Part shown: in pieces, positions 7,813 through 47,925 of the stretch
How positions within the stretch are numbered: the stretch's first letter is position 1
Layout of the letters: every line of letters begins with the position of its first letter
From: Minisyncoccota bacterium
Lineage (GTDB): Bacteria > Patescibacteriota > Minisyncoccia > Phycocordibacterales > UBA2100
NCBI GenBank assembly: GCA_965267345.1
Contig: OZ253947.1
Span: forward strand, 489,964 to 553,963
Length of the DNA stretch: 64,000 nt
Reading direction: 5' to 3'
The notes under the pieces: model-generated
Databases searched by the model: none
Told to the model about the DNA's origin: nothing
The model's input: the letters and a program-made list of their open reading frames with translations, nothing else
Position numbers and translations under genes: made by a program

Positions 7813-7845
7813 CACACACTGGTATCGTACGCACACTGCCAAATT

Positions 7846-9680: not shown

Positions 9681-9683
9681 CAT

Positions 9684-13654: not shown

Positions 13655-14446
13655 TGGAGCTTTGATTGCAATACTTTTTCCAAAACGCTCCGCAACAGCA
13701 TAATTAAAGTCCATATCCGCCCCCCTGCCTTTTCTACTCGGTCGTGTACGTTCCCAGAGTGGACGAAAACAAACCGCATCAAAAACCTCACGGCGCACCA
13801 TAGCCGTATTCCCTGAACATGGATAGGGCTTTATATCACACCAAAACAACTTCCTCCCCAGGCGTTTAATAAGCCGAATAGGGTGTATATTTATAGACCG
13901 GTACGAAAGTGGGTCCCGCAACCATCGAGGAATAGGTTTATTTTCTTTGGCTAGTTTGTTTATCTCATCAAATCCAAGTACTCCAACTGTATTAAGGTCT
14001 ACGGGCAGTTCTCTCCCAACCATCTCCTCAACACCCTCTTGTGGGTGCTCATAGTCGACCACTGCGTGCATCGCCCCATACTTCTGCAGCAATTCATACT
14101 GTATTTCTATACGATTAGCATACGACAGGTCGTCAGCATCCTGAAAAGTGATGACTTCCCCGTTCGCTTTTTCAACTCCATGGTTACGTGCACTGTATCC
14201 AGCGTTAATGTTCACTCCAATTCTGTTGAGTCGATATGGATCATCGCTCTCTATCTCAACACGGTGAATGCGACTGTCTTTAGCAACACACTTGTCCACG
14301 ACAGTCTGCGTCCCGTCTGTACTCTTGTCGTCGACAACGATTATCTCAATATGCGGATATGTTTGAGTACATAACGATTCGAGCGCGGCAGCAATAGTTG
14401 GGGCATTATTATGCGTCGGGACGATAATGGAAATAAGTGGCTTCAT
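13634..14446 (-). CDS. glycosyltransferase family 2
   Basis: ISIIVPTHNNAPTIAAALESLCTQTYPHIEIIVVDDKSTDGT. Confidence 0.8.
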   Translation of the reverse strand: MKPLISIIVPTHNNAPTIAAALESLCTQTYPHIEIIVVDDKSTDGTQTVVDKCVAKDSRIHRVEIESDDPYRLNRIGVNINAGYSARNHGVEKANGEVITFQDADDLSYANRIEIQYELLQKYGAMHAVVDYEHPQEGVEEMVGRELPVDLNTVGVLGFDEINKLAKENKPIPRWLRDPLSYRSINIHPIRLIKRLGRKLFWCDIKPYPCSGNTAMVRREVFDAVCFRPLWERTRPSRKGRGADMDFNYAVAERFGKSIAIKAPLYLWRT

Positions 14447-14448
14447 GG

Positions 14449-16005
14449 CTACCGAAATATCTTACTTAAAACAAAGTTTTGCTCCGACTTTAACAGACCA
14501 CATCGAAATGTAACGTAGAGGAATGCACATATATGTATCATGGCAACGCCAGCACTCCATACACTTATTTCAAGATGCTGCATAAGCACCACGCCAACGA
14601 AAGAAAAAACTAATACGGGCACAAACATCCGACGCACAAAGTCAAAAAAGACTTTGTGCGGATGCACGCCCAATCTTCGATAAAGCATGAGTGGGAGCCA
14701 CACTCCGACGATTAGCATATTCGCCACCGCCATGGCAATGGGTATGCCAGCGATTCCTAATTTTGGTACAAAAAAGATGTATAGGAGCACTGCCGCAGCA
14801 AGATGGATAATTGAAACGCCTGCTAGCATACGGTACCAGCCCATAGCTTGGGAAAATTCCACGTGCGGCCCCGTCCATCCATACGTAATGAATAAAGCTG
14901 CTAACCCTAAGAGAACATCAAAGCCCATAAGGAAATCTTCGCCTACCCACAACACTATTGCCGGGCGTGCATATATAAATATGACTGCGACAATGCTGAC
15001 ACGAGCCACAAGGCTTAAGCGCAACATTCTTTGGTAAAGTAGCTGGAGCGTCTTGGTATCTTGTTTAGTGGAAATCTCAACCGCACTCGAAAAAAGAGCA
15101 TCCGTCACCTTTGTCCCCATTGAGGGAAGTTGGAAAAGACGAAAGGCTACGTAGTAAGCTGCAAGAGACGAAAGTCCCAAAAAGTAAGACGCTGCCAGCG
15201 CGTCACTCTTTCCAATGAACGCCGCAGCGCCAGCACTCACAACAAGGGCTGGGCTATATTGCAATAATTTTCGTACAGAGCGAAAAGAGTCTTTCGTTAC
15301 TTTCCATGACACTAGTGCATTAAATCGACTCCATTCATACATCAGCAACGCAAAGCGTATCAGGGCGCTCCCGAACAAAAACCAGGTAATAGAAATGAGC
15401 GAAGGCTGTGTTAGCAAAAATAGTACATACGCTACTCCAAAGACTGCAGTGTATAGAATGGAGACTCCATTATACGTAGGGACTTGGTTGCAACCCTGAA
15501 ATCCTGCTCGAATGACTCCCGATAAGAGCGTATTTACCGCCCATGTCCCTGCCGTAAGAAAAAAGACGAAACCTGCTATGGTTTGCAGCGCGCTTGGCAC
15601 ACCTAATATACTTAGTATCGGAATACCCGCTAACTGAAGTACCGCAACCAATGTAATTGCAAAAAATGCAACGGCCACTAGCAATCCCATTGCAACTATT
15701 AACACACCTCCGCTTTGGGCTAGACGCTGCTTAGCACGATCTCCACTAACTGCATGAACAAGTGTTCTGAGTAAACCGAGATCTGCAAATCCTAGTATAC
15801 CCACGAAAGACCCAGCGAGAATCAACAACCCATATTGCTCCTTCCCCACGGCATTAATAACTAGCGGGATAGTGACGAAAGCAATGAATGCCGATACCAA
15901 AGAATGCAATGTGTTAGTGATTGACCCTCGTGCAATGAGTTTTGCATGATCAGCCTCACTGACTGCTCGATGGATGCTAAATATATGTTGTAGGTTAGAC
16001 CACAT
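14449..16005 (-). CDS. Wzx-like oligosaccharide flippase / polysaccharide biosynthesis membrane protein
   Basis: ~12-14 TM helices, polysaccharide-export flippase architecture, in glycan cluster; ORF track start 16050 overlaps upstream gene. Confidence 0.65.
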   Translation of the reverse strand: MWSNLQHIFSIHRAVSEADHAKLIARGSITNTLHSLVSAFIAFVTIPLVINAVGKEQYGLLILAGSFVGILGFADLGLLRTLVHAVSGDRAKQRLAQSGGVLIVAMGLLVAVAFFAITLVAVLQLAGIPILSILGVPSALQTIAGFVFFLTAGTWAVNTLLSGVIRAGFQGCNQVPTYNGVSILYTAVFGVAYVLFLLTQPSLISITWFLFGSALIRFALLMYEWSRFNALVSWKVTKDSFRSVRKLLQYSPALVVSAGAAAFIGKSDALAASYFLGLSSLAAYYVAFRLFQLPSMGTKVTDALFSSAVEISTKQDTKTLQLLYQRMLRLSLVARVSIVAVIFIYARPAIVLWVGEDFLMGFDVLLGLAALFITYGWTGPHVEFSQAMGWYRMLAGVSIIHLAAAVLLYIFFVPKLGIAGIPIAMAVANMLIVGVWLPLMLYRRLGVHPHKVFFDFVRRMFVPVLVFSFVGVVLMQHLEISVWSAGVAMIHICAFLYVTFRCGLLKSEQNFVLSKIFR

Positions 16006-17029
16006 GTGTTCCCAGTGATGACTGTATTTCTTTCCAAGTACGTTCAGCATTAAATTTTTTCAGTGCCTGAACGGCTTGCTTATTCATATCTTGTAGTACA
16101 CTTGGTTGCAAAGAAGAGGCCTTTCGCACCTTTTGATATAAATCATAGTAACTTCGGTCCTTTGCAATAAAGCTATTTGAATGATTCATCCATTCCCAAT
16201 CACCATTTTTAGCAAAACCTACTATCACGCAACCGCTCAGCGCCGCTTCGGCTGGCGGAAGTGGGAAACCTTCATCGTAGCGACTACCCGCATACGTAAC
16301 CTTGGTGCGTCGATCAACACACCCCTTTGTGAGCAAATACTTTCCCCATGCGCGTAATTTCTTTTTTAGATTTGGTTGGTATCCAATGGCAGTATGGAGA
16401 AAGAGATTTCTGTGCGACGCCTCCGCGGCAAAATCGTCCTCAGTAAATTTACCACTAAGTAAATGTATGTTTTCTTTTCCGAATATGCCCCTAATGAATG
16501 TAACGTACATAGCTCCTTTGCGAGAAAGCGCCAACGTCCCTGAACGCTCTTTGTTTTTGCGGACGTTAGCATAGTACTGGTGATCGAAGTACGGGTGCAC
16601 AATATCGCATTGTACTTGGTATTTTTTTTCCAAAATATTCTTGTTGCTCTCGCTCACAGACCAGAAGTGGGTATATCCCGAGTCAGAGTTGAAAACTCTA
16701 TCTCCAACGAGAGTCTCTCCTTCTAAGAAAAAATTGCACTGCGGATAAAATATCTTAACATCAGCCGGACAATCCCTAACAAGTTCCATGGCCTCCTTGT
16801 CTGGCCATGTGCCAATAACAATATCGCTCGACGTACACATTTCCGCCATTGCGTCATTACTTAGTATTGGCGCTGATCCGCGAAGCCACGAAGGAGTGTA
16901 TACTTCTTTTCTAGGTGAAAAAATGAAAGCATCAAAACCATTGCGTAAAAATAGACACGCAAGCATATGATTCACTTTTCCACCACCCGACGGCCGATTG
17001 TGGGCACTTTGTATAAAGACTCTTTTCAT
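15995..17029 (-). CDS. glycosyltransferase-like protein (uncertain family)
   Basis: 344 aa in glycan cluster, 4-nt overlap with neighbours. Confidence 0.5.
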   Translation of the reverse strand: MKRVFIQSAHNRPSGGGKVNHMLACLFLRNGFDAFIFSPRKEVYTPSWLRGSAPILSNDAMAEMCTSSDIVIGTWPDKEAMELVRDCPADVKIFYPQCNFFLEGETLVGDRVFNSDSGYTHFWSVSESNKNILEKKYQVQCDIVHPYFDHQYYANVRKNKERSGTLALSRKGAMYVTFIRGIFGKENIHLLSGKFTEDDFAAEASHRNLFLHTAIGYQPNLKKKLRAWGKYLLTKGCVDRRTKVTYAGSRYDEGFPLPPAEAALSGCVIVGFAKNGDWEWMNHSNSFIAKDRSYYDLYQKVRKASSLQPSVLQDMNKQAVQALKKFNAERTWKEIQSSLGTHVV

Positions 17030-17889
17030 TTCAACTTGGAAGGTGCAGGAATGAAGAATACATTTTGTATGCGATCATGGTCGCCATCCGTATATGAACG
17101 AAGGGTACGTGAAGAGCGATCGATGACAAAAGGTTTGTAATTAAACTCCTGCATGAATTTAAGAACATCCGTTATCGTAACATTGTACGCGTTCAGGTTC
17201 TGAGAGAATAGCTCAATCAACAAAAGATCAACTGCCTCTCTCCTCAATAAACCAGCGGCTCCGCGCAATACTGCCATCTCACTCCCTTCTACATCAATCT
17301 TTAAGAAATGGATCTTAGATATGCTTTTGTTGCTAGCGTACATATCTAAGGTGGTTGTTTCGACTGTACATCTCGCATCCTCGCGAACCCGACCCGTACC
17401 CCTAAAAGATGAAAAGCCGGAATCTCTCGCGATAGAAAAATTTTGCGTCCCGGCTTTATCAGAAAGAGCGACTTGATTAAGGAGTGCTCGACGATCCCAT
17501 CCATTTAAACATATATTCGTCTCGCAGAGCGCCTTGGGTAAGGGTGCTGGTTCGAAACAATGAACTCTAGCTTTAGGTGCAACACTCGCACATAACAAAG
17601 ACCAGTATCCGACGTTGGAACCCACATCAACCACTGTCGCATTTCGGTCTAATGTGGAAGTTACATACGTTGCCTCTAAGCTTTCAAACCTACCGAGTGC
17701 CTTAAGCTGAATGCCCACACTGTCGTGAACCAGAACGAGCATACGAAAATTTCCCAGAGAAGCCTCTGCAACACGTTGTTTCTTAAATGCAGCACGCACT
17801 AGAACAATACGAAATTGGTCGGAAATATTTATAAGTCTCACCGCCAAACTCTGCCACGCAGATGCGACAAACCGAAACAATCTTTTCAT
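17026..17889 (-). CDS. FkbM-family methyltransferase
   Basis: VVDVGSNVGYWS ... FLKIDVEGSEMAVLRG motifs characteristic of FkbM family. Confidence 0.75.
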   Translation of the reverse strand: MKRLFRFVASAWQSLAVRLINISDQFRIVLVRAAFKKQRVAEASLGNFRMLVLVHDSVGIQLKALGRFESLEATYVTSTLDRNATVVDVGSNVGYWSLLCASVAPKARVHCFEPAPLPKALCETNICLNGWDRRALLNQVALSDKAGTQNFSIARDSGFSSFRGTGRVREDARCTVETTTLDMYASNKSISKIHFLKIDVEGSEMAVLRGAAGLLRREAVDLLLIELFSQNLNAYNVTITDVLKFMQEFNYKPFVIDRSSRTLRSYTDGDHDRIQNVFFIPAPSKLK

Positions 17890-18869
17890 GTTGCATCACT
17901 TTTCCTAGCTTGTGCGGCAACCCAGACATACGTCTTCTCAAGACCCGTAGAAAGCTTCTGCGTTGGCGCCCAGTCAAGCTCTTTCTTAATGAGAGCGTTG
18001 TCAGACGTTCTACCACGCACGCCAAGTGGGCCCTCTACATGTTTAATAGAAATTTCCTTGTTTGCAATAGCGGCAACCATTTCCGCTAACTCGTTAATAC
18101 TTACCATTTCGTCCGAGCCAATATTTACTGGCCCATGGAAATCCGGATGCTCCATAAGGCGACACACCCCTTCAAGACACTCGTCGACGTAAAGAAATGA
18201 GCGCGTTTGTTTACCATCCCCCCACACTTCGATTTCTCCCCCGTCTTCAGCCTCGGCAACCTTGCGGCACATCGCAGCAGGTGCTTTCTCGCGCCCGCCA
18301 CGCCATGTGCCCTCTGGTCCAAAAATATTATGAAAGCGCGCTATGCGTACATCAAGCCCATGATTGCGCAAAAAGGAAAGATACAGCCGCTCGCTAAAGA
18401 GCTTCTCCCATCCATACTCACTATCAGGTGCCGCTGGATACGCTGAGGCTTCTTCGCAATGAGGATTGTCAGGGTCAAGCTGGTTGCGTTCTGGATATAT
18501 ACACGCAGAGGAAGAATAAAATACTTTTCCTACTTTTCTCTCAACACCGAAGTGCGCCATATGTAAATTTATCATGGCTGAGTTATGCATGACGTGTGCA
18601 TCATTTTCACCAGTGAAAATGTACCCTGCACCCCCCATATCAGCTGCGAGTTGATATGCTTCGTCAAACGGCCTGTCAAGAATGTACTCCCAGACCTTTA
18701 CGTCACGCAAATCACCAACCACAAAATCGTCGGCGGCTGACGTAGAGAATTCAGGCTCTTTTAAATCAACGCCGCGCACCCAATATCCTTCGCTTTTAAG
18801 ACGACGGACGAGGTGGCTTCCAATAAAACCACCAGCTCCACACACCAAGGCTGTCTTTTGTTTGCTCAT
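17886..18869 (-). CDS. NAD-dependent epimerase/dehydratase (extended SDR)
   Basis: ALVCGAGGFIGSHLV Rossmann motif, YxxxK region. Confidence 0.8.
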   Translation of the reverse strand: MSKQKTALVCGAGGFIGSHLVRRLKSEGYWVRGVDLKEPEFSTSAADDFVVGDLRDVKVWEYILDRPFDEAYQLAADMGGAGYIFTGENDAHVMHNSAMINLHMAHFGVERKVGKVFYSSSACIYPERNQLDPDNPHCEEASAYPAAPDSEYGWEKLFSERLYLSFLRNHGLDVRIARFHNIFGPEGTWRGGREKAPAAMCRKVAEAEDGGEIEVWGDGKQTRSFLYVDECLEGVCRLMEHPDFHGPVNIGSDEMVSINELAEMVAAIANKEISIKHVEGPLGVRGRTSDNALIKKELDWAPTQKLSTGLEKTYVWVAAQARKSDAT

Positions 18870-18913
18870 ATACCCTTTTAGATTATATTCAGCTTAGCAC
18901 ACTAAAATAGAGA

Positions 18914-20053
18914 TCAGCTATATATTTGAAGATACTCTTGCGCCTGCTTTGATGTACTAAATTGGGCCGCATGTGCCGAATTACCAACCGCAAGCTCCTG
19001 CCTAAGCTCTGGATGCTCGTAGAGGCGAATAAGGCGCTCATTGAACGCCTGATGATCGTTCAGAGGAAATACTTGAAACAACGCATGCGCAAACTGTTCA
19101 CGAGCGCCACCAACATCACTTGCAAGCACAGGCACTCCAACATGCAATGCTTCTGTAAGCGAGATGGAAAATCCTTCAAAACGCGATGGCAACACAAATA
19201 CGTCAAACGCCTTCATATAGGTGGCGGCATTAGGTATCCCTCCTGCAAAAAGCACCTTTTCACACACGCCTTTGTCCTGCGCCCGCTTTAAAAGAAACGC
19301 CCGCTCAGGACCATCGCCAAGGAGCAATACACGAAGGTCTCTGTACGCTGCAGGCAGCTGTGCAAGTGCATCAATAAGAAATTCATAGTTCTTGGGCGTA
19401 TCTAAACGGCCGATTGATCCAACAATGAACTCTGGTAGCCTTTTCCCAAGACACGTTTCGAGCCATGCACGCGCCTGTTTTCGTGAAAGTAGAGTGTCGC
19501 CTAGTTCAATGCCATTGAAAATGATATGACCTTTATTCACTATATGGTGTGCTTTCGCGTCAACATAATTGCGCTCACTTACAAATACACACTCGTCCAC
19601 CCATCTCAACGTCGCCTGCAACACGAGTGCGTATACTACCTTGAGCATCAAGGGATCTCGTGCGGTTTCCTCTAACAGCGAAAGGCCGTGAAAAGTAAAT
19701 ATTGTTTTCGGCTTTTGAGGAACCAACTTCGCAGCAACGGCGGCAAATAGTGCGTTTGAGCTGTTGATGTGCACCGTTGTGAAGTGCTTTTGTTTGATGA
19801 AGCGTCGCGCCTCAAAAATGAAAAAGAGGTTCGCGAATGGATTGTATGTACGCCCGAGCCAGGCAAAGCGATGTGTCGGAATTCCCTCTTTTTTGCACTC
19901 ACCCTCAAGCCACTCCCCATCCCCGAAGGCGACCGTGACGTTTTCGCTTCTTCGCTGCAGTTCTCGTGCGAGATTCAAGACGGATGTTTGTGCTCCTCCT
20001 ACCACAGCTCGTGTAACGATAATTAGGATATTCTTATCCGACGAAGCCTTCAT
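18914..20053 (-). CDS. glycosyltransferase family 4
   Basis: LPSRFEGFSISLTEALHVGVPVLASDVGG motif. Confidence 0.8.
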   Translation of the reverse strand: MKASSDKNILIIVTRAVVGGAQTSVLNLARELQRRSENVTVAFGDGEWLEGECKKEGIPTHRFAWLGRTYNPFANLFFIFEARRFIKQKHFTTVHINSSNALFAAVAAKLVPQKPKTIFTFHGLSLLEETARDPLMLKVVYALVLQATLRWVDECVFVSERNYVDAKAHHIVNKGHIIFNGIELGDTLLSRKQARAWLETCLGKRLPEFIVGSIGRLDTPKNYEFLIDALAQLPAAYRDLRVLLLGDGPERAFLLKRAQDKGVCEKVLFAGGIPNAATYMKAFDVFVLPSRFEGFSISLTEALHVGVPVLASDVGGAREQFAHALFQVFPLNDHQAFNERLIRLYEHPELRQELAVGNSAHAAQFSTSKQAQEYLQIYS

Positions 20054-20064
20054 AATGAGAGAGT

Positions 20065-20958
20065 TTAAGATCTTAATCTGAAAGGATTTTTGTTGGCACG
20101 CGCCCAGTGATTGTTTTCAGTATCATATACAACAAAACGATGAGAAAACCTAGACACAAAAGGTAAATATTCAAAAGCGCGATCGGGAATGAATCTCCAA
20201 ATCCACCGCGTTGCATATAAGAATCGATAGGAAAACGTTTCTGCCCTGAAGCTTAACGAGGTGCGTTTTTTGAGTCGCTTTACGGCTCGTGTAGCGTACG
20301 ACATAAATTCGGCGCGCCGCAAGACACTCTGTCCCTCCGCGATCTTTCGATAGGCACCAACAATGCTTGGGACGTGATAGAGTTCGAATCCTGCGCGGAA
20401 TAATTCAACCCAGAGACCAATGTCAAAGGCCCATGTATCTTCATCTTGCAACCCACCCACCTTCTTCCAGGCAATGCTCCTGACAAAGGTTGATTCCTGC
20501 TGTATGATTTGCCACTTCCCAATTGCAAAATCATATTTATTTTTCCTGAACGAACGAACATTCACCACCATGCCCTCCTCGTTAATGGTTGTAGCGAGTC
20601 CGGTGAGCCAATGTATGTCTCGATGTGCCCTGAAGATTGCCCCTACTGTCGACAAACTTTTGGGCAAAAGTATGTTTTTATCATTGAGCCAGCCATATAT
20701 TTCTCCTGTCCCCTTACTAAATCCATAATTAATCGCATGAATTGGACTCTTGCGATACCCAGGAAGCTGTTCGCAATAGGTAAGCTTCTCTCTATATTCT
20801 TGGATTATATCCCAGCTTTTATCTGTCGATCCGTCGTCAATAACTATGTACTCAAGGTTCGGATAGTCTTGTGCAAGAACAGACTCTATGGTTTCTCGTA
20901 TATATCGTTCTCGATTAAAACACGGAGTTACTATCGTTATCTTCGGAAGTGCACTCAT
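20065..20958 (-). CDS. glycosyltransferase family 2
   Basis: ITIVTPCFNRERYIRETIESVLAQDYPNLEYIVIDDGSTDKS. Confidence 0.8.
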   Translation of the reverse strand: MSALPKITIVTPCFNRERYIRETIESVLAQDYPNLEYIVIDDGSTDKSWDIIQEYREKLTYCEQLPGYRKSPIHAINYGFSKGTGEIYGWLNDKNILLPKSLSTVGAIFRAHRDIHWLTGLATTINEEGMVVNVRSFRKNKYDFAIGKWQIIQQESTFVRSIAWKKVGGLQDEDTWAFDIGLWVELFRAGFELYHVPSIVGAYRKIAEGQSVLRRAEFMSYATRAVKRLKKRTSLSFRAETFSYRFLYATRWIWRFIPDRAFEYLPFVSRFSHRFVVYDTENNHWARANKNPFRLRS

Positions 20959-22298
20959 ATATCTCTCCGACCAAGAGGTACGTACTGCAGTCCGTCAGTA
21001 AAATCTGCAGAAGAGAACATGCCCCATGGGTCGATAATCATGCTAACGTTTTTTCCGTGGATCAAATCACTTAAGCGGAGGAGGTCTTCTTCAGGGTTGC
21101 CAATAAAGACCACGTCGGCCTTTACAAGAAAATCCTCAAGGTCAGTAAGATATTCTGCCACACCGCCCAAGCGAGCCTTGCTATCCGCATACCCAAACGA
21201 GTCAAACGCCACCAAGGGGTAACTCTTTCCAAGCTCTCTCGCAATCTCTATTGACTGCGACTCTTCCGCAAAAGGTGTTCCTGTTTTATAACCCAGACTA
21301 AGTACCCCGACAACAGTTTTCTCTCCCATGCCGTTCTTTTTCATTTCTTCCTGTATAGTTTTAGCTATATACTTTGGCATATGCGCATTCAGGGCATGTG
21401 TTTGCCTAGCTAACGGAGCATCAACTCCCCGATCTTCCGCCATGGACGCAAATGCGAAGTTGTCACGCGGGAAACATGGACCCCCATACCCCAGACCACT
21501 GCGAAAAAAGCGAGACCCTATACGAGAATCCTTACCAATTGCGTTTGTGACATCATCAACATTCGCATAAGGTATTTTTTCGCACACTCTTCCAAGAGTG
21601 TTCGCGAATGTAATTTTCATTGTAACGTACGAATTGAGGCTTATCTTTGCAACTTCCGCACTCTCAATGCTCATATTGCACACCTTCTCTTCTGCGTATG
21701 CTTTCCCGTAAAGTTTTTCAAATATAACCTTCAATTTCTTTTCAGCATTTGTATCCGAGGCACCAAGAAACAGGAAATCAGGTTTCCGAAGGTTGTTCAC
21801 AATATTCCCAATGGCAATAAGGCTCGGGCTGTAGCAATAGCCAAAATCCACTCCGCATTTTTTTCCAGATGCTTTTTCAATAGCCGGAATAATTTTGTTA
21901 CGTGAATCACCTGGCAATACAGTGCTCACAAGTACAAAAAGGTGATAAGATTCTTTCGTCCGCAATGCCTCCCCCAGGCTTTGCATTGCTGCTTGCACGT
22001 ATTGAACAGAAAAGGACCCGTCATCATTACTCGGCGTCGGCACAACTAAAAAAGTAACGTCTGTCTCTTTTACCAATTCGTGAGGGTCGTTTGTCGCAGA
22101 TAGCAGCGTCGGGTAAGAATCAATTATCTCTTGCAGGTGTGGTTCTACAACAGGCGCCTTTTTTTTGTTGACCGCATCAACTTTTGTCGAATCAACATCA
22201 TATCCAATAACTTCAAAGCCTTTTTCTGCGCAAAAAGCAGCATAGCAGGAACCAAGCTTCCCAAGGCCCATCATTGAAATTTTAGAGGGATTTTTCAT
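20955..22298 (-). CDS. nucleotide-sugar (UDP-glucose/GDP-mannose family) dehydrogenase
   Basis: N-terminal GLGKLGSC Rossmann motif, GGPCFPRD catalytic-Cys motif. Confidence 0.85.
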   Translation of the reverse strand: MKNPSKISMMGLGKLGSCYAAFCAEKGFEVIGYDVDSTKVDAVNKKKAPVVEPHLQEIIDSYPTLLSATNDPHELVKETDVTFLVVPTPSNDDGSFSVQYVQAAMQSLGEALRTKESYHLFVLVSTVLPGDSRNKIIPAIEKASGKKCGVDFGYCYSPSLIAIGNIVNNLRKPDFLFLGASDTNAEKKLKVIFEKLYGKAYAEEKVCNMSIESAEVAKISLNSYVTMKITFANTLGRVCEKIPYANVDDVTNAIGKDSRIGSRFFRSGLGYGGPCFPRDNFAFASMAEDRGVDAPLARQTHALNAHMPKYIAKTIQEEMKKNGMGEKTVVGVLSLGYKTGTPFAEESQSIEIARELGKSYPLVAFDSFGYADSKARLGGVAEYLTDLEDFLVKADVVFIGNPEEDLLRLSDLIHGKNVSMIIDPWGMFSSADFTDGLQYVPLGRRDI

Positions 22299-22326: not shown

Positions 22327-23283
22327 TCATACGTTATACACCATAAGTGTGTCTTCGACCATCATTCTAAGTGAGCACCCTGGCTTCCAATTAAGATCGT
22401 TTTGGGCTTTTGTTGCGTCAGCGAGAACCATGGCGGGGTCGCCAGAGCGACGCGGGGCAATTACTGTTTTGAGTGATTTTCCTGATACTTCCTCAAGTGC
22501 AGTAACAATTTCTTTCACTGAATAGCCCCCACCGCTACCAAGGTTATATATGCCGCCTGCGTTTGTTGAAAGAGCTCGCAGGTGTGCCTCGACAATATCG
22601 GCTATGTGAATGTAGTCGCGCACGCACGTGCCATCGGTTGTCGAATAGTCGTCACCAAAAATGCTGAAAGGTAGCCCTTTCCCGAGTGCATTAGCAAGTA
22701 TCGGAAACACGTTCTGCGGGTCGGCGTCCTTGAAGTGCACGTCGGCATCGCCGACAACATTGAAGTAGCGAAATATGGTGTAGCTGGGAAGTTTTTTGGT
22801 ACGCGCAAACTCAGTGATGAGCTGCTCAGCGAGCATTTTACTGGTGCCGTAGACACTCATTGGTGCCAGCGGCGTGTCCTCTGCACAGACGCCATCGGAC
22901 GGCGCTTCGTATACTGCAGCCGTTGAAGAAAATATGACGTGCGCTGTGCCATGGGCTGCTGCTTGTACGAGTACGTTGAGCGTACCCGTGACGTTTGTTG
23001 CAAAGTATTCCTCAAGCTTTTCTTCACTTTCGGAAACCGACTTGAGTGCCGCGGCATGAATAACTGCCTGTGGCCGATGTATCGCAAACACATCACGCAG
23101 CGCAGCAATATCGAGAATATCGACTTCGACAAACGTTGCACGCTCATCGACGTAGTGCCTCTCCCCTTTTGAAAGATTGTCGAGGGCCACTACTGCATAG
23201 CCCTGTTCGCAGAGCGCTTTGACGCACGCCGAGCCAATGTAGCCAGCGCCACCCGTAACCAGTATCGTGTGCGTATCGTTCAT
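22327..23283 (-). CDS. galE: UDP-glucose 4-epimerase
   Basis: ILVTGGAGYIGS...DNLSKG motif, YGTSK catalytic motif. Confidence 0.85.
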   Translation of the reverse strand: MNDTHTILVTGGAGYIGSACVKALCEQGYAVVALDNLSKGERHYVDERATFVEVDILDIAALRDVFAIHRPQAVIHAAALKSVSESEEKLEEYFATNVTGTLNVLVQAAAHGTAHVIFSSTAAVYEAPSDGVCAEDTPLAPMSVYGTSKMLAEQLITEFARTKKLPSYTIFRYFNVVGDADVHFKDADPQNVFPILANALGKGLPFSIFGDDYSTTDGTCVRDYIHIADIVEAHLRALSTNAGGIYNLGSGGGYSVKEIVTALEEVSGKSLKTVIAPRRSGDPAMVLADATKAQNDLNWKPGCSLRMMVEDTLMVYNV

Positions 23284-24833
23284 GTTTTCTCTTCGATAGT
23301 GAATTCGTCGGCTGGGTCAGTACTGCGCCGTGCAAGGAGCATACCGGCACCTCCCGTGAGTATAAGGGCAGTGAGGGCTAAATACCACCAGAAGGAGCTG
23401 TGAGCAGTAGGTTTTGAGCTATGAGCAGTGGCGGCGAGTTGCGAGTGGGTAGTAGTTGGACGTGTGGGGTTGGTAGTTCGGAGTTGGGTGCTTGCAGTTG
23501 GGAGTGATGACGTGTCTCGATTAATCGAGGCACGAGCGGCATCGACAGCTGGTGATGGCGACTGCTGTGGCACGGGCGTGCCGATAAGTGCGTTGTGTGA
23601 GCGAGAGGTGGTCAGCTGAGGATTGGTAGGCTTCTGCATAGAGCGGGGCGGTGAGGCATTAGTACTCGTCGCCGGTGAGGTAGTTTCTGTAGTCGTTGCC
23701 TGCGGTGATACAACGGTTCCCACGAGCGCAGTGCTTCCGTCGGGAAACAGCAAGCTCGCTTCTTTGTCGACGCGAACAAATGGCAGCTCGAGCACCTCGG
23801 TTGCAAGGCGGATCGTGCTACTGGCAGCGACGGTGGTGCCGATGGGCAATTCCGCCGTGCGCACCGGTGAGCGCACGCGCCACTCGGATAGATCGAGCGG
23901 CGCATTACCGTGATTAGTGATCGCAATCCACTTCCCTGCTGCACCAATGCGCAAGGCGGCATCAAGCTGCGTAATACGTGCAGTGATGGTGTGTTCGTCG
24001 CGCAATGCGCCGTGCTCAAGCGTTGCCGTAATTACGTACTCACCCGCATAGCGATACGCATGACGCACGTCGTAACCAACTGCTTCTGTTCCGTCGCCAA
24101 AGGCCCACCGAACAACACCATTCGTGAGCGCGCGTCCTCGCGCATCGTACATTTCCGCATGCAGCGCGATGGGCGCACCAGCGACTCCCACAATCTGTTC
24201 GGGAAGTCGCAAGTGCACGTCTTGCGGCGGCTCAACACTTAGTGGCTCATAGGTGTACTGCGTGATATTTGTTACCGTTGCATCAGTTTCGTTGGTATTC
24301 GTATCGTTAGTGTCGGTCGTATCGCCAGTTTCGCCAGTGTGCTGCGCTTCGTTTGGTGTTGGCGTGCCTGCAACAAGCGCATCACCATCGCGATGCAAAC
24401 TGTTGCCGTCATTGGCTGCGCCGTCACTCTCGCTGTACGTCACCGAGTCGACAATGTCACCCGCGGCATTTTTTAGTGCAAGTGTTTCGCCAGTGTTTTT
24501 GAGGCTGAATGCGCTATCAATGAGCGTGCCACTTACTGACGGATAGTCGTCTTGGAAGGTAGTTGCATCGTCGGCAATAATCGCACAGGTTCCACTCTCA
24601 AGACTCCACAAGCCGCTGACGAGCTCAAGGCCGTGATTAGTTTCATTTTCATAAAAGACCCACCCGTCGAGTGTATGGTCGCCGTCGCTCGCGCACACTT
24701 CAATCCACTCATGATCGGCATCAGTGCTCTCGGGCGCATACATAATTTCGGTAATACGCACGTCCGCCGCAGCGATTGCCGGCGCGCACAGCAAGCACAC
24801 AATGAAAAGCGTGTACGCGCTACGCGCCATCAT
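23280..24833 (-). CDS. secreted lamin-tail-domain (LTD) protein with Thr/Pro-rich linker and C-terminal TM anchor
   Basis: Signal peptide MMARSAYTLFIVCLLCAPAIAA; LTD-like ITEIMYAP...EWIEV...GETLAL blocks; C-terminal WWYLALTALILTGGAGMLLARR helix. Confidence 0.7.
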   Translation of the reverse strand: MMARSAYTLFIVCLLCAPAIAAADVRITEIMYAPESTDADHEWIEVCASDGDHTLDGWVFYENETNHGLELVSGLWSLESGTCAIIADDATTFQDDYPSVSGTLIDSAFSLKNTGETLALKNAAGDIVDSVTYSESDGAANDGNSLHRDGDALVAGTPTPNEAQHTGETGDTTDTNDTNTNETDATVTNITQYTYEPLSVEPPQDVHLRLPEQIVGVAGAPIALHAEMYDARGRALTNGVVRWAFGDGTEAVGYDVRHAYRYAGEYVITATLEHGALRDEHTITARITQLDAALRIGAAGKWIAITNHGNAPLDLSEWRVRSPVRTAELPIGTTVAASSTIRLATEVLELPFVRVDKEASLLFPDGSTALVGTVVSPQATTTETTSPATSTNASPPRSMQKPTNPQLTTSRSHNALIGTPVPQQSPSPAVDAARASINRDTSSLPTASTQLRTTNPTRPTTTHSQLAATAHSSKPTAHSSFWWYLALTALILTGGAGMLLARRSTDPADEFTIEEKT

Positions 24834-26574
24834 TTAAGATACGTTCAAGCACCTCACGTGGTACTTCGTCACGGCGTGCATCGCCTGCGTCCTCCTTCCC
24901 ACTTTCTTGCGGCGTGTCGTCACGCTTGCCAATGCGGGGAAATAAATCTGGATAGCTCTGTTGCGGCTCAGATGGTGTCGTTGCTTCGCGCGATTCTGTC
25001 GCCTCGTCAGACGACTGTTTGCTTTTGGGTGTTGTATTGCTCCGCTCCGGTGCTTCTTCAGGTGCATCAGGAGCTGGTGTTTCGTGCTCGTCGGACTTGC
25101 TGGGCGGCTGTGGTTCCGCAGCGGCTGCAGCAGGCACCGCAGTGATAGCGCCGAGTGCTTCGCGCAGCGCGTTGCGCTGTGCGTCAGTACGCGGCTGCGC
25201 TGTTGGGTCGGCAGGTGTCTCTCCTCCGCCACCGCCTTTCTTCTTCTTTTTCTTCTTCTTTTTCTTGGTGGTCATCATCTCCTCATTCTGTGCGCGAATC
25301 GCATCTTCGATTTGCGCTCTGATGCGCGCGTACTTCTCGCGCGAACTCTCAACGATGCGATTGACGAAATTAAACGGCGGGTGCTCCACCGGCGGCAGTG
25401 TTGTTGCAGAAAATGGCTGCGAGCCGATCCCGTCAATCATGAGCGTCAGGTAAATTTGCGCAAATCCGAGATTCACTAAATCCTCCACGTAGAACGTCGG
25501 CTCAAAAATGGGCTTGAGCGTTTCCGCATCAAACGGCCCAACACGGAACGTGATGGTGGTGCCAACGTTCCCAAACACGGCCGAGCGAATGTGTTCGTCG
25601 ACTTGTTCGATGTACTGGTGCGCAATGGTGAGTGCGAGTTTGTACTTACGCGCTTCCGAGAGAATGTTGGCGAATGAGTCGTTCACCACTGACTGAAATT
25701 CGTCGACGTAAAGATAGAACGGCGGGAGCTGTGCCAGTTCAGCCTGTGTATTTTCAGCGCGACTCATCGCCGAGAGGTACATTTTTGTGGTGAGGATGCT
25801 CCCGAGCAGATCGGCATTTTGTTCACCCATGCGCCCTTTCGAGAGGTTCACAATGAAGATCTTACGCTCGTCCATGATGCGGCGTAAATCAAACGACGAG
25901 TGTGGCTGCCCGATGATGTTGCGCACAAGCGGATTCGAGACAAATTGCCCGATCTTGTTTTGAATGGCAGGTGTCGCCTCTTGTGTGTATCGGTCGGTGT
26001 AGCCGGCAAACTCTTCCTGCCAAAAGCGTTTGACGATCGGGTCGGTGACGTACTCGGTTACTTTTGCACGAAACTCTTTGTTGATGAGCATGCGGTTCAC
26101 GTCAATGAGCGTCGTGTCGGGATACTCGAGCAGCGCCAGCAGCACGTTTTGCAAAATGTATTCCATGCGGGCACTCCACGCATCAACCCAAATGCGCTGA
26201 AAGGCACTCATGAGACCCGCCACCACGAGGTGGCGCTTGTCGTACCCGACGTCCTCCATTACATTGAAGCCGACGGGAAACTCAGTATCAAATGGCGCAA
26301 AATAGACGACGTCTTCAATGCGTGACTCAGGCACAAATTCGAGCAACTTCTCAGCCGTTGAACCGTGCGGATCAATGAAGGCAATACCCTCACCGTTTTG
26401 AATATCCTGAATGGCCATGTTCTCGAGCATGGTTGATTTACCCATACCCGTTTTACCAATGATGTACATGTGGCGCATTCGATCGAGCGCCTTGATGCCA
26501 AACGGTACTTGCCCGCCGCGCGCGTCGGTGGCACCAAAATAGATAATACGCTCAGGATCGTATTCGTACGGCAT
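24820..26574 (-). CDS. TraG/TraD/VirD4-family coupling-protein-like P-loop ATPase (soluble, no N-terminal TM) with Lys/Gly-rich disordered C-terminus
   Basis: Walker A IIGKTGMGKST, ...IDPHG..., Walker B-like YLYVDEFQ; 14-nt overlap with downstream LTD gene. Confidence 0.6.
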   Translation of the reverse strand: MPYEYDPERIIYFGATDARGGQVPFGIKALDRMRHMYIIGKTGMGKSTMLENMAIQDIQNGEGIAFIDPHGSTAEKLLEFVPESRIEDVVYFAPFDTEFPVGFNVMEDVGYDKRHLVVAGLMSAFQRIWVDAWSARMEYILQNVLLALLEYPDTTLIDVNRMLINKEFRAKVTEYVTDPIVKRFWQEEFAGYTDRYTQEATPAIQNKIGQFVSNPLVRNIIGQPHSSFDLRRIMDERKIFIVNLSKGRMGEQNADLLGSILTTKMYLSAMSRAENTQAELAQLPPFYLYVDEFQSVVNDSFANILSEARKYKLALTIAHQYIEQVDEHIRSAVFGNVGTTITFRVGPFDAETLKPIFEPTFYVEDLVNLGFAQIYLTLMIDGIGSQPFSATTLPPVEHPPFNFVNRIVESSREKYARIRAQIEDAIRAQNEEMMTTKKKKKKKKKKGGGGGETPADPTAQPRTDAQRNALREALGAITAVPAAAAAEPQPPSKSDEHETPAPDAPEEAPERSNTTPKSKQSSDEATESREATTPSEPQQSYPDLFPRIGKRDDTPQESGKEDAGDARRDEVPREVLERILNDGA

Positions 26575-26590
26575 GGTATGTAGTATAGCA

Positions 26591-26820
26591 GTAGTGAGTT
26601 AGGAGTTTAGGAGTTGGAAGTGGGTAGTTGGAAGTTCGGAGTGAGGAGTTCGGAGTTGGTAGTGTGGAGTAAGTAGTGAAGAGTTGTTTCGATTAATCGA
26701 AACATGATGCAAAGTGACCAGTGGAAAGTGAGAAACTTAGTACATCGGATGTACTAAGTGTGGAATGATTTGTTTCGATTAATCGAAACAACTCACGCCA
26801 CACTACTCACTACCAACTCC
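26591..26820. repeat. composite inverted-repeat element: GGAGTT-rich imperfect ~50-bp terminal inverted repeats, each ending in TGTTTCGATTAATCGAAACA, flanking a 23-bp inner palindrome
   Basis: left arm ...GGAGTTGGTAGTGTGGAGTAAGTAGTGAAGAGTTGTTTCGATTAATCGAAACA; right arm is its approximate reverse complement; inner CTTAGTACATCGGATGTACTAAG at 26736-26758. Confidence 0.7.
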
Positions 26821-26827
26821 CGACTGT

Positions 26828-28087
26828 CTATTCTGCTGGCTCCAGCGCAGCTCGTGTATACCTATTCGCCGGGTCCCAGAGCATCCATGAGTGCAGGCCT
26901 GCATCGTAGGCTGCCTGAATTTGTGCACGCACTTCTGTCGGGCCGTAGTCACCGCCGTAGTCAAAGTCTTGCAGCCACGGGCGCAAAATATTCGGATCGC
27001 GCGCAGGTTTCTCGTACACGGCTGGTGTACTGGTGCCGATACGCGTATAGGCAAGCGCTCCAATGGTCGTGGTCGTTGCCGTCACGCGCTCGACAGCACG
27101 GTCCATTGAATACTTAATCACGCCGTAGACTTCGGTGTTTGGATTCGCGTAGCCGTTGAAGCCGCGTGGATAGTGCGACGGGTACACCATTGGGGCGATG
27201 TAGTCGAAGTACGGCGTCGCGCGCTCAAGTACCTGCCCGATAGTGAGGTCGTCTTTGTTGGTTGTCGTCATACCAAAAAGGTCTGCCGAGAGCGTCGGTG
27301 AGTGACCATTGGCATCAGCAACACGTACCTTTGACTCAAGGTACCGGAAAAACTTCTCAAGCTCTTGCGCACGGTTGTTGTAATCGGAATGATCAAACGA
27401 CACGTCGCTCATTGGCCCATCTGACGGATAGCGGACATAATCGTAATTGAGCTCGTCAAATCCAATAGCGTGCGAGTCGTGTGAAATGTCGACAATGTAG
27501 TCCCAAAATGGTTTCGCGCCGACATCAACAAACGATAACCCTTTGTGGTCTTTCCATGGCTCACCGACACGACTTTTGCTCTGTACCGCACGTGCAGGGT
27601 ACACCGATGTGTAGAGCGGGTCTTGGAACACGGCGATGCGACCGATAACATAGATGTCTTTTTCGTGCAGAAGCGCGATGAAGTCTTCCATGTCAGGCAC
27701 GGTGCATCCGGTACCATCGAGCACCTCTCCACTGCCGTCATCCTCGCGCGGAAAGCTCACCGTGCCCGTGTAGTCTTTAATATCAATAATAATCGCATTC
27801 AGTTCGGTATCGTCGATGAGTGAGATGAAGTGGTCGCGAAAATCGCTGCTCGATGCTGCACACTGGCTCATGTAGACGGCACGCACGTGCTCGGGTGTAT
27901 CCATATGCGCCACAGGCGGCACCACGTCCTCCTCGGGTTTCGTCACCTGTGGGTGCTCGGGGCGCAGATACACTAACTCGCTGCCGCCAAATACAAAGTG
28001 GGCAACAAGCGTGACACTTGCCACAATGAGCACTGCCACGCCGATGATGAGCGCGACACCTTTGTGTGACCGTACGAGGTTAGGCAT
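26828..28087 (-). CDS. membrane-anchored TIM-barrel glycoside-hydrolase-like protein (DUF4015/GHL type)
   Basis: N-terminal TM then ...IIDIKDYTG...IGRIAVFQDP... motifs; start at internal ATG 28087 that overlaps stop of upstream small ORF. Confidence 0.55.
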   Translation of the reverse strand: MPNLVRSHKGVALIIGVAVLIVASVTLVAHFVFGGSELVYLRPEHPQVTKPEEDVVPPVAHMDTPEHVRAVYMSQCAASSSDFRDHFISLIDDTELNAIIIDIKDYTGTVSFPREDDGSGEVLDGTGCTVPDMEDFIALLHEKDIYVIGRIAVFQDPLYTSVYPARAVQSKSRVGEPWKDHKGLSFVDVGAKPFWDYIVDISHDSHAIGFDELNYDYVRYPSDGPMSDVSFDHSDYNNRAQELEKFFRYLESKVRVADANGHSPTLSADLFGMTTTNKDDLTIGQVLERATPYFDYIAPMVYPSHYPRGFNGYANPNTEVYGVIKYSMDRAVERVTATTTTIGALAYTRIGTSTPAVYEKPARDPNILRPWLQDFDYGGDYGPTEVRAQIQAAYDAGLHSWMLWDPANRYTRAALEPAE

Positions 28088-28313
28088 GGTGCTCTTCAAC
28101 TGTCTCGTCGACTGGAGCGGTATTTTGCTGATAGCTCTCCGGCTCTGCATCGCGCTCCATTGCCGCGGCGAGCATCATGATGCGAATCGCCAGTGTGGCG
28201 ACTGCAAGACCAAGGACTACGAACATCACCGTATCCCAACTCGCGGGGAACCCCAAGAACGGCAGGATCGCAACGGCAAATCCGAGTGTAATAATGGCCT
28301 TGATGTGCTTCAT
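28080..28313 (-). CDS. small membrane protein (2 TM), hypothetical
   Basis: 77 aa, two hydrophobic helices, stop overlaps ATG of downstream gene (ATGCCTAA). Confidence 0.4.
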   Translation of the reverse strand: MKHIKAIITLGFAVAILPFLGFPASWDTVMFVVLGLAVATLAIRIMMLAAAMERDAEPESYQQNTAPVDETVEEHHA

Positions 28314-28330
28314 ACGTACGCAATTATATA

Positions 28331-29008
28331 CTACTTTTCACTCACAATCACGACGAATTCTCCCTTCTGCTTCACCGGATCAACCTCAAGCTGCGCAGCG
28401 AGTTCAGCGGCCGTGCCACACAGTAGCTCTTCGTGCATTTTGGTAAGCTCACGGGCAATGCATACGCGCTTTTCGTCGCCACCGTGTTCCGTGATTTCTG
28501 CCATGAGTTTGGTAATGCGGTGTGTTGACTCGTAGAGCACCACTGGCCGACTTGTTGCGGCGATTTCTTTAAGCAGCGTCTGCCGCCCCTTTTTGTGTGG
28601 CAGGAAGCCTAAGAAAAGAAACTCGCTACTCGGCACACCTGCAATAGAGAGTGCTGCCGTAAGTGCTGACGGACCGGCAATTGCTTCAACTGTATGTCCT
28701 GCCGCACGCGCGTGATTCACCAAAAACGTTCCCGGATCAGAGATGCCGGGAGTTCCCGCATCAGAGACGTAGGCAACATGCTGCCCTGCGTCGAGCAATT
28801 CGAGCACGCGGGGTGTCTTGTCGTGCTCAGTGCGAGCATTCAGACTCTCGAGCTGTGCATCAATACTGTGGCGCTCGAGGAGGCGCTTGGTCACACGCGT
28901 ATCTTCACAAAAAATGATGTCGGCTGCGCTCAGAGTAGTGAGTGCGCGCAGCGTGATGTCGTCGAGGTTGCCGATAGGCGTGGCAACGATTGAAAGCGTG
29001 CCCGTCAT
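28331..29008 (-). CDS. rsmI: 16S rRNA (cytidine1402-2'-O)-methyltransferase
   Basis: LSIVATPIGNLDDIT...FCEDTR tetrapyrrole-methylase-fold signature. Confidence 0.85.
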   Translation of the reverse strand: MTGTLSIVATPIGNLDDITLRALTTLSAADIIFCEDTRVTKRLLERHSIDAQLESLNARTEHDKTPRVLELLDAGQHVAYVSDAGTPGISDPGTFLVNHARAAGHTVEAIAGPSALTAALSIAGVPSSEFLFLGFLPHKKGRQTLLKEIAATSRPVVLYESTHRITKLMAEITEHGGDEKRVCIARELTKMHEELLCGTAAELAAQLEVDPVKQKGEFVVIVSEK

Positions 29009-33876: not shown

Positions 33877-33934
33877 TGTTTCGATTAATCGAAACAATTA
33901 ATTTGGCCGGGGTGTCTCGATTAATCGAGACACC
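33877..33934. repeat. two adjacent perfect palindromes of the TCGATTAATCGA family (20 bp and 24 bp)
   Basis: TGTTTCGATTAATCGAAACA (33877-33896) and GGTGTCTCGATTAATCGAGACACC (33911-33934). Confidence 0.85.
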
Positions 33935-37095: not shown

Positions 37096-37422
37096 CTAAG
37101 ACGCACGATGTGCGCCTTTTCATGTGAACGAAACAAAAGAATACACATTCTATTTGTTCGTTTTGGATTCTCTTTCGTAAAAGAATATTTTAAGGGGCAA
37201 GTACAAAAATGTACTTGCGTGCATGATATGCCCGCTCCTAAAGTGGGCACGTCATGTGATGATGGTACTATACCGATGCTCTTTCAAGCTCGGTACGTTC
37301 ATCTGTATTCGGTTGTCAAAAAACAAACTAAAAACCGCCCTTGAGCGGTAGACGGAATTGTACGGGTTTTTTATCCCGAGTCAAGGAAAACCTGCACGTC
37401 ACGACCGTGCTATTCTTGGCGC

Positions 37423-37989: not shown

Positions 37990-38011
37990 GTGTCTCGATT
38001 AATCGAGACAC
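37990..38011. repeat. 22-bp perfect palindrome GTGTCTCGATTAATCGAGACAC
   Basis: Read directly; between secF stop and the 16S upstream region. Confidence 0.85.
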
Positions 38012-40976: not shown

Positions 40977-41018
40977 CGAGTGCGGGCTGTTTCGAGTACT
41001 CGAAACAGCCCGCACTCG
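40977..41018. repeat. 42-bp perfect GC-rich palindrome with GTTTCGA-GTAC-TCGAAAC core
   Basis: CGAGTGCGGGCTGTTTCGAGT|ACTCGAAACAGCCCGCACTCG; between sugar-transferase stop and secD start. Confidence 0.85.

Positions 41019-44814: not shown

Positions 44815-47925
<3,111 letters not shown>

Follow-up and report, generated by a model that had tools for sequence, protein, structure and literature searches.

Members of the candidate phyla radiation (CPR, Patescibacteria) cannot make nucleotides and are thought to depend on DNA uptake (PMC6744442, PMC10633639). ComEC is reported in 86% of CPR genomes. The listed competence core consists of ComEC, DprA, and ComFC, with ComEA and ComFA not named (PMC10633639), and ComEA is annotated in about one-third of CPR genomes (PMC6744442, PMC10633639). 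Nearly every Patescibacteria genome also contains unexplained homologues of type IV coupling proteins (T4CPs) far from a type IV secretion system (T4SS) (PMC12102498). In a survey of 3035 assemblies, 5713 VirD4-like homologues were counted in 2918 genomes, only 148 of these homologues lying near virB4, and VirB4 was present in 2417 assemblies; no PrgB-like adhesin was found there, and exaptation was considered possible by the authors (PMC12102498). In Southlakia, the T4SS is essential and a distant t4cp homologue is not (PMC12102498), and this T4SS has been described as having no recognisable coupling protein (PMC10633639). Here, we describe two adjacent genes, encoding a coupling-protein-like ATPase and a surface protein with lamin-tail domains (LTDs), in a 64,000-nucleotide stretch of DNA from a Minisyncoccota bacterium (contig OZ253947.1, positions 489,964 to 553,963), referred to below as the window. 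A model that read the sequence of the window had suggested that these genes serve DNA uptake or transfer or surface attachment (the original prediction).

LTDs are borne by extracellular nucleases of the ExeM/Xds type. In haloarchaea, the domain accompanies extracellular nuclease and extracellular DNA (eDNA) proteins: ComA-like metallo-beta-lactamase proteins and the eDNA-metabolism protein Hvo_1477 contain an LTD, which is said to "likely afford membrane association" (PMC5118699). We found no description in the open-access literature of an ATPase paired with a protein carrying an LTD or ComEA-type head.

Results

A conserved pair of genes

The two genes lie on the minus strand, as do all features of the pair given below. 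The first (24820..26574) encodes an anchorless P-loop ATPase of 584 residues with the VirD4/TrwB-type fold of coupling proteins, as judged from its open reading frame (ORF), Pfam matches, AlphaFold (AF2) model, Foldseek search, and homologues. The second (23280..24833) encodes a type I surface protein of 517 residues, called the partner below, which was assigned from its ORF, two Pfam LTD stretches and a PKD domain, its AF2 model, and a Foldseek search. The genes share 14 nt (24820-24833), and the partner ATG falls within the final ATPase codons (…AAATGATGGCGCGTAG). The original prediction had placed this overlap exactly, and its description of the products as a VirD4/TraD/TraG-like ATPase without a membrane anchor and a secreted, C-terminally anchored lamin-tail protein agrees with the domain matches and models presented below. 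The numbers of homologues indicate that both ORFs are real genes: there are more than 8000 close homologues of the ATPase and, besides the partner itself, 27 detectable homologues of the partner, at least eight of them on contigs sized as those of ATPase relatives.

Conservation of the pair was scored with family hidden Markov models (HMMs) on six-frame translations of related loci. Of 76 evaluable GTDB species loci, 53 had the partner directly downstream of the ATPase and on the same strand, as did 20 of 57 evaluable metagenome loci, which were chosen around a divergent query. In loci lacking the partner, the next gene encoded a GT4 glycosyltransferase, a GalE-like epimerase, or another protein. 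In partner-positive loci, about 20 families occurred before the ATPase and about 20 after the partner. Both outer flanks thus vary, and the pair exceeds general synteny in stability. The pairing persisted to 49% ATPase identity (locus L162) and was also present in L163 and L164, with partner identity as low as 29%. In one locus (L119), a gene for the N-terminal domain described below, the ATPase gene, and the LTD gene are consecutive. The close partner family, wherever present in a locus, stands directly after the ATPase. In the reading proposed below, the pair is a conserved two-gene envelope module of Paceibacteria.

Exchange of the distal head

In 15 related loci, the gene right after the ATPase encodes a protein with a ComEA-type helix-hairpin-helix (HhH) head in place of the first LTD (LTD1). 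In these proteins, a signal peptide is followed by the sequence …LVNINTAD…LPGIGP.KAQAIIDYR…VSGIG…, and Pfam HHH_3 matched in all 10 scanned loci, a subset of the 15, with E values of 2e-11 to 4e-22. In nine of these 10 proteins, the head is followed by the PKD body, four of them having a weak second LTD; the protein of L064 is HhH only. The stalk and transmembrane helix were seen separately in most HhH-headed proteins. One HhH head matched the solved ComEA chains 8dfk (E 3e-16) and 8dss (E 2e-14). To our knowledge, DNA binding is the only known role of the ComEA-type HhH domain. No HhH domain was present elsewhere in the 160 loci, and none in the window or its partner protein.

Custom domain models were used to classify the architectures of 75 partners. 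LTD1-PKD-LTD2 was the most frequent (45 partners), followed by LTD1 only (11, some truncated) and HhH-PKD-LTD2 (10). PKD-LTD2 with a third Ig-like type of head and a truncated LTD1-PKD were each found in three, HhH only in two, and a truncated HhH-PKD in one. Two further HhH heads, beyond the 75 classified partners, are cut by contig ends. LTD-headed and HhH-headed partners are intermixed on the ATPase tree, and LTD is the inferred ancestral head. Parsimony required nine head switches compared with a mean of 14 for shuffled labels, a rough count because it was made on a neighbour-joining (NJ) tree. These distributions indicate that the distal head of an orthologous surface protein has repeatedly alternated between LTD and HhH.

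The third head type, which comprises about 130 residues (…GQFSSSATGWNPVTVLTMNKNTANKNFYYKD…), replaces LTD1 or HhH in loci L008, L011, and L016. It gave no significant sequence match in the PDB.

Architecture of the surface protein

The partner matched Pfam LTD in two stretches (62.6 bits, cut-off 34.3) and PKD once (30.7 bits, cut-off 23.5). From the N-terminus, it consists of a signal peptide, an LTD, a PKD domain, another LTD, a Ser/Thr/Pro stalk, a C-terminal transmembrane helix, and a short acidic tail. In the AF2 model, a signal-peptide helix (residues 3-15) and a transmembrane helix (residues 479-503) bracket three beta-sandwich domains and two disordered linkers. The signal peptide comprises residues 1-23 (MMARSAYTLFIVCLLCAPAIAAA; 24765..24833), as suggested by its sequence, the modelled helix, and the equivalent N-termini of homologues. 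The LTD1 head follows at residues 24-160 (24354..24764), where Pfam LTD covers residues 20-134 and residues 25-156 are modelled with a pLDDT above 90; a PDB sequence search with this head gave no informative match. Residues 203-372 (23718..24227) form a constant body, in which the PKD domain (residues 203-290; Pfam 214-276) is joined to the second LTD-like domain (residues 291-372) with a pLDDT of about 95 over residues 206-372. This PKD-LTD2 body is retained in LTD-headed and HhH-headed orthologues alike. The disordered stalk (residues 373-478; 23400..23717) consists of 50% Ser, Thr, and Pro, with a pLDDT below 50 at residues 380-476. The remaining segment (23283..23399) comprises the transmembrane helix given by AF2 and the cytoplasmic tail STDPADEFTIEEKT, whose motif [DE]-x-F-x-I-x-E is found in most close homologues. 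The partner is thus a type I surface protein in which a constant body (PKD, LTD, a glycosylation-type stalk, and a transmembrane helix) presents an exchangeable distal head. Its Foldseek neighbours are strings of Ig-like domains, namely phage Hoc, the S-layer proteins SbsB and Sap, and collagenase PKD (TM-score up to 0.86 on the target).

Sequence change is much more rapid in the partner than in the ATPase; for one contig, identity is 44% between the partners and 85% between the ATPases. In most close homologues, the cytoplasmic tail takes the form [VA][DE][GQ]F[ET][IV][IV]E, KEWDIIEE, or EEFDIE. The window protein has an acidic tail of 14 residues and no LPXTG motif. In one partner subclade, the C-terminus is reminiscent of a sortase-type sorting signal, with LP[YW]LGL, a transmembrane helix, and a short basic tail. 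This subclade occupies loci L017, L025, L038, L042, L046, L047, and L077, in which the ATPase C-terminus reads LERMMRV..DKxP. The classes of ATPase C-termini correlate with those of partner tails, a correlation that is confounded by phylogeny.

Structure of the ATPase

Three Pfam families matched the ATPase, all narrowly above their cut-offs: TrwB_AAD_bind (31.6 bits, cut-off 20.5; residues 32-346), DUF87 (24.3 bits, cut-off 23.2), and TraG-D_C (23.6 bits, cut-off 22). The AF2 model drew on 73 homologues and has good confidence over residues 1-445. When it was compared with the PDB using Foldseek, DotL (E 8e-11), Cagbeta (E 3e-9), and TrwB (E 6e-9) ranked above HerA (TM-score 0.3-0.4; E 1e-8 to 1e-4), VirB4, and TcpA (E 0.08). 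The TM-score on TrwB was 0.60 over approximately 415-449 aligned columns. Sequence searches reached less far, as the PDB match was confined to the Walker A region of TrwB and a weak NCBIfam match to CedD covered the Walker A region only.

The Walker A motif GKTGMGKS (residues 40-47; 26434..26457) is invariant at most positions in the 73 homologues and at least 90% conserved at the others. In the Walker B motif FYLYVDEFQ (residues 286-294; 25693..25719), V290, D291, E292, F293, and Q294 are invariant. An all-alpha insert (residues 111-235; 25870..26244), delimited by the AF2 helices, the Pfam span, and the alignment with TrwB, separates the two motifs, and in the model this helical block between Walker A and Walker B reproduces the coupling-protein arrangement. 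The N-terminus lies only about 30 residues ahead of Walker A. No transmembrane segment was present in the AF2 model or, by a crude hydrophobic-window scan, in representatives of the short form of the family (see below), no dedicated predictor having been run on the window protein. The ATPase is considered soluble because of this late start and the lack of a transmembrane-like helix. We call it coupling-protein-like and not a T4CP because two defining features, the membrane anchor and, within the scanned window, linkage to a T4SS, are missing.

A disordered C-terminal extension (residues 437-568; 24871..25266; pLDDT below 50 at residues 452-463, 478-501, and 506-568) follows the folded part. 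It starts with 10 consecutive Lys codons (AAG/AAA) and then five Gly at 25237-25266, where homologues have a Lys-rich patch, and it holds a conserved helix, RNALREALGAI (residues 467-477). The extreme C-terminus carries a helical motif, DEVPREVLERILNDGA (24823..24870; consensus E-V-P-x-x-V-L-x-x-L-L), defined by the alignment and by a helix at residues 573-581 with a pLDDT of about 82. As the EVPxxVLxxLL motif is found with or without a downstream partner gene, it probably binds something other than the partner.

The wider ATPase family

The best match of the ATPase is a 100% identical protein, and the names on its homologues point to Candidatus Kaiserbacteria (Parcubacteria/Paceibacteria, CPR). 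Core identity is 57-85% among the best 120 homologues listed. Together with the many invariant residues in the alignment, this level of identity indicates strong purifying selection. Among 1.84 billion cluster representatives, we found 21,913 relatives of the ATPase, including 5853 at E <1e-30. We place the window protein, which is soluble, in a very large clade of coupling-protein-type ring translocase ATPases that extends across the Patescibacteria.

The relatives have two architectures: a short form, to which the window protein belongs, and a long form with an N-terminal transmembrane hairpin and a domain of about 350 residues. This domain is labelled PF26449 in a precomputed annotation, and we found no mention of PF26449 in the literature. 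It is fused to the ATPase in many library representatives, and the long form is also that of the phage homologues phrog_5156 and Bacillus phage G gp156. CP-51 gp91 is also fused, and only hypothetical proteins surround it. In a sister clade of short forms, the N-terminal module is encoded by a separate gene immediately upstream of the ATPase (24 metagenome loci). Such upstream genes were recorded in loci L119, L125, L128, and L133-L160, and module proteins of the sister clades include P0212, P0220, P0221, P0229, and P0299-P0418. An HMM of the module gave no match in the window or in the closest species loci, L001-L080.

Surroundings of the pair

Pfam scans of the window covered 46 non-nested ORFs of at least 150 residues, skipping nested alternative-frame ORFs and ORFs on rRNA genes. 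No T4SS, relaxase, pilus, or competence domain was found in these 46 ORFs. The window genes are those of a core chromosome, including SecA, FtsK, RecA, SecDF, FtsW, Mur ligases, ribosomal proteins, and 16S and 23S rRNA. A DUF4015 gene is directly upstream of the ATPase gene, and an array of glycan genes lies downstream of the pair, with GalE and glycosyltransferase genes adjoining the partner gene. Hence, the original prediction was also right in stating that no T4SS or competence genes are nearby and that the pair sits at the edge of a glycan cluster beside a DUF4015 gene. The GC content of the partner (0.56) and ATPase (0.54) genes is like that of core genes, and that of the downstream glycan array is 0.43-0.49. 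A mobile element or conjugative island was rejected on the basis of the core-gene surroundings, the core-like GC content of the pair, and the lack of a relaxase or VirB4 among the scanned ORFs.

The glycan-synthesis array (approximately 7270-22298) encodes GT2 and GT4 glycosyltransferases, epimerases, UDP-glucose dehydrogenase, FkbM and other methyltransferases, and a Wzx-like flippase. Its GC content, measured over 13634-22298, contrasts with 0.53-0.58 in the adjoining core genes, so that the array looks island-like. A protein with Wzy_C and TPR domains is encoded at 3975-6197.

The intergenic leader of the ATPase gene (26575..26827) contains two perfect copies of the 18-bp palindrome GTTTCGATTAATCGAAAC and G+T-rich repeats with a period of 14 nt (GGAGTT/GTAGT units). 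A partly complementary stretch is found across the palindromes from these repeats (26595-26678 and 26788-26825 together). Six copies of the palindrome with 0-2 mismatches occur in the window, where none is expected, all apparently intergenic (26686-26703, 26772-26789, 33878-33895, 33914-33931, 37992-38009, and 40989-41006). Possible identities of the palindrome are a repetitive extragenic palindrome (REP)-like element, a terminator, and a global regulator's operator. Further upstream (28083-28337, minus strand), there is a gene for a small protein with two transmembrane segments, a conserved LPFLGFPxSW loop, and an acidic tail. In 45 related loci, it recurs between RsmI and DUF4015, at a distance of one to three genes on the upstream side of the ATPase.

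Elsewhere in the window, protein genes (for SecD/F, a sugar transferase, and FtsW) occupy the approximately 7.7 kb between the 16S (35642-37099) and 23S (44849-47927) rRNA genes. The 23S rRNA gene exceeds the model by about 150 nt and contains a tRNA-like Rfam match (46596-46669), which together suggest an insertion. A protein of 1134 residues (53585-56989, minus strand) has an N-terminal peptidoglycan-binding domain as its sole recognisable domain.

Discussion

In this study, we identified a conserved pair of a coupling-protein-like ATPase and a surface protein with an exchangeable head. We tentatively propose, as a reading that is possible rather than probable, that the pair is a DNA-handling module composed of a surface DNA receptor and a cytoplasmic translocase motor, which might fill a ComEA/ComFA-like gap in CPR competence. 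The occurrence of ComEA-type heads at the partner position in 15 loci provides independent support for this reading. The head would capture eDNA at the cell surface, as suggested by domain identity for the HhH-headed orthologues and, less directly, for the LTD head by analogy with the LTDs that accompany extracellular nucleases and eDNA proteins. DNA would then pass the membrane via a channel encoded elsewhere, probably ComEC. The ATPase, to judge from its fold, could engage the DNA at the cytoplasmic face and power or couple translocation in a ComFA- or TrwB-like role. In most subclades, the acidic-aromatic tail of the receptor might recruit the anchorless ATPase to the membrane. A more specific version, in which the pair would be the front and back end of CPR competence, with an LTD/ComEA-headed receptor and a motor exapted from conjugation-type export to ComEC-dependent import as an analogue of ComFA, appears doubtful.

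The DNA uptake or transfer reading of the original prediction is therefore sustained in part. The fold of the ATPase came out on the side of coupling proteins, relatives with as little as 49% ATPase identity still have both genes together, and the HhH heads were an addition in its favour. One premise failed: the LTD had been taken for the extracellular DNA-binding domain of ComEC, and canonical ComEC uses an OB fold (DUF4131) for this (PMC5031224). The acidic LTD head and the repeated loss of the partner also weaken that reading.

Several further observations speak against a DNA-handling module. ComEC (Competence domain), ComFC, and DprA were not found in the scanned ORFs of the window. The affinity of the LTD for DNA and the physical or functional link between the two proteins are both putative, and a T4SS may lie elsewhere in the genome. 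At least 17 changes in partner presence are required on the NJ tree of ATPase cores; repeated losses of the partner left the ATPase in place, which indicates that the ATPase does not need it. More distant LTD-PKD proteins (P0144, P0145, and P0148) do not adjoin the ATPase. In a sister clade, there is an overlap of about 20 nt between a phosphoglycerate kinase (PGK) gene and the end of the ATPase gene at its stop codon, and we therefore rejected the idea that the 14-nt overlap implies coupling and do not count gene overlap as evidence here. HhH heads were found in only 15 of 77 partners, and this minority and the third head type leave room for head exchange to mean diversification of ligands. 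One partner subclade stops at the transmembrane helix and has no cytoplasmic tail, so tail recruitment cannot be universal. Considering this subclade and the phylogenetic confounding of the correlation between tails and ATPase C-termini, tethering by the tail is untenable as a general mechanism. The LTD1 head of the window protein is strongly acidic, with an isoelectric point (pI) of 4.05 and a net charge of -23, and across 24 homologues the ectodomain has a median pI of 4.39. This is only a weak argument against DNA binding because the HhH heads are mildly acidic too (pI approximately 4-5); the view that an acidic ectodomain excludes DNA binding was weakened by these ComEA-type heads of orthologues.

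It is unlikely, in our estimation, that the two proteins are functionally unrelated neighbours, that is, a cytoplasmic housekeeping translocase and an adhesin or S-layer-like glycoprotein, perhaps glycan-decorated, kept adjacent by operon inertia. Such a reading would fit the evaluable loci in which the ATPase has no partner (23 of the 76 species loci and 37 of the 57 metagenome loci), the gains and losses on the tree, the overlap of a housekeeping gene such as PGK with the ATPase stop, and the C-terminal ATPase motif that is independent of the partner. RsmI, DUF4015, and GT4 genes are frequently nearby as well, and the 50% Ser/Thr/Pro stalk of the partner, its position beside GalE and glycosyltransferase genes, and its S-layer/adhesin-like fold also count in favour of this reading. 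It accounts poorly for adjacency kept from 85% to 49% ATPase identity despite changing flanks, for the strict position of the close partner family directly after the ATPase, and for ComEA-like heads at the partner position only; moreover, the GC content of the partner gene is core-like and not that of the glycan island. We regard as quite unlikely an arrangement in which the ATPase is the coupling protein of a chromosomal Patescibacteria T4SS encoded elsewhere and the partner is its target-cell adhesin, serving episymbiotic host contact and delivery of protein or DNA. Gram-positive conjugative T4SSs use C-terminally anchored surface adhesins, and one partner subclade carries an LPYLG-type motif with a transmembrane helix and a short basic tail. 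The coupling-protein fold, the wide distribution of VirB4, the usual distance of T4CP homologues from virB4, and the lack of a surveyed PrgB-like adhesin (PMC12102498) are compatible with this arrangement. Against it, the ATPase is anchorless, no T4SS gene was found within the 64 kb, and the ComEA-type head suits DNA capture more than host adhesion. T4CP homologues occur in more genomes than VirB4 (2918 vs 2417), and in Southlakia, the dispensable t4cp homologue beside an essential T4SS (PMC12102498) and the T4SS with no recognisable coupling protein (PMC10633639) point the same way.

It is very improbable that the ATPase is a HerA/FtsK-type enzyme of repair, segregation, or anti-phage defence whose likeness to coupling proteins is superficial. 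The DUF87 match (the HerA central domain, 24.3 bits), PADLOC hits to mad8 (9e-17) and HerA models, HerA structure matches with E values of 1e-8 to 1e-4, and the phage homologues phrog_5156 (2e-57) and Bacillus phage G gp156 (27% identity) could be read in this way. DotL, Cagbeta, and TrwB nevertheless matched with better coverage and TM-score than HerA, and the ATPase has the all-alpha insert. HerA partners such as NurA and Sir2 are not encoded nearby, and the setting is a core chromosome and not a defence island. As a defence system, the ATPase has only the weak PADLOC mad8 and HerA matches, and the preprint on MADS contains no information on mad8. A role as FtsK substitute was rejected, as a separate, canonical FtsK with four transmembrane segments and alpha, motor, and gamma domains is encoded in the window at 58897-61263.

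If the DNA-handling reading is true, an LTD/ComEA-headed receptor would explain DNA binding in the approximately 70% of CPR genomes that have no annotated ComEA, and the ATPase would represent a new use of the coupling-protein motor. In CPR, both the T4CP homologues that stand apart from a T4SS and the lack of a recognised DNA receptor are puzzling, and the link between the ATPase and the surface protein offers one testable hypothesis for the two. If the link is only operonic, the data still define a modular family of surface proteins and a large, highly conserved family of orphan ATPases that comes in long, split, and short forms.

Comparison with known systems

Among described systems, the ATPase is most like the type IV coupling proteins (VirD4, TrwB, TraD, DotL, and Cagbeta), with which it shares the P-loop domain with an inserted all-alpha domain and its best fold and Pfam matches. 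Its C-terminal part, a long disordered extension with a short conserved motif at the end, recalls F-plasmid TraD, the tail of which binds TraM. It differs from coupling proteins in lacking the N-terminal transmembrane domain, in not standing beside a VirB4, relaxase, or T4SS gene in the scanned window, and in being core-chromosomal, with 57-85% identity among the listed close homologues. The sister clades differ further in carrying the transmembrane hairpin and N-module (PF26449), fused or as a separate upstream gene. This N-terminal domain, not found in the window, sets the ATPase apart from the long and split members of the Patescibacteria and phage family. The HerA/FtsK translocases are more remote, given the weaker HerA fold match, the lack of a NurA-like neighbour, and the separate FtsK in the window. 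ComFA of Firmicutes and the archaeal Ced ATPases are comparable in the proposed role of a cytoplasmic NTPase driving DNA import. In contrast, ComFA is a DEAD-box helicase of unrelated fold, and the Ced ATPases are VirB4/HerA-like and membrane-associated.

The partner resembles PrgB-type adhesins and S-layer or Ig-like proteins in that its Ig-like domains are strung together on a C-terminally anchored stalk, consistent with the SbsB, Sap, and Hoc matches. Unlike PrgB, it has no LPXTG motif, PrgB sequence homology, or adjacent T4SS. With the haloarchaeal proteins Hvo_1477 and ComA-like Hlac_1867, it shares a secreted or membrane-associated LTD, which in those proteins occurs in a DNA-related extracellular context (PMC5118699). 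The partner differs from LTD-containing nucleases and eDNA proteins in having no nuclease or metallo-beta-lactamase domain, and the role of the LTD as a DNA binder in those proteins is putative. Compared with ComEA, the window protein has an LTD as its head instead of HhH, and its anchor is a C-terminal transmembrane helix under a PKD-LTD-stalk body, in contrast to the N-terminal anchor of ComEA. Furthermore, it is encoded after a coupling-type ATPase and not in a comE operon with ComEC. What the partner family shares with ComEA is the HhH head, present in 15 related loci, on a surface-exposed protein that is membrane-anchored as in Gram-positive ComEA.

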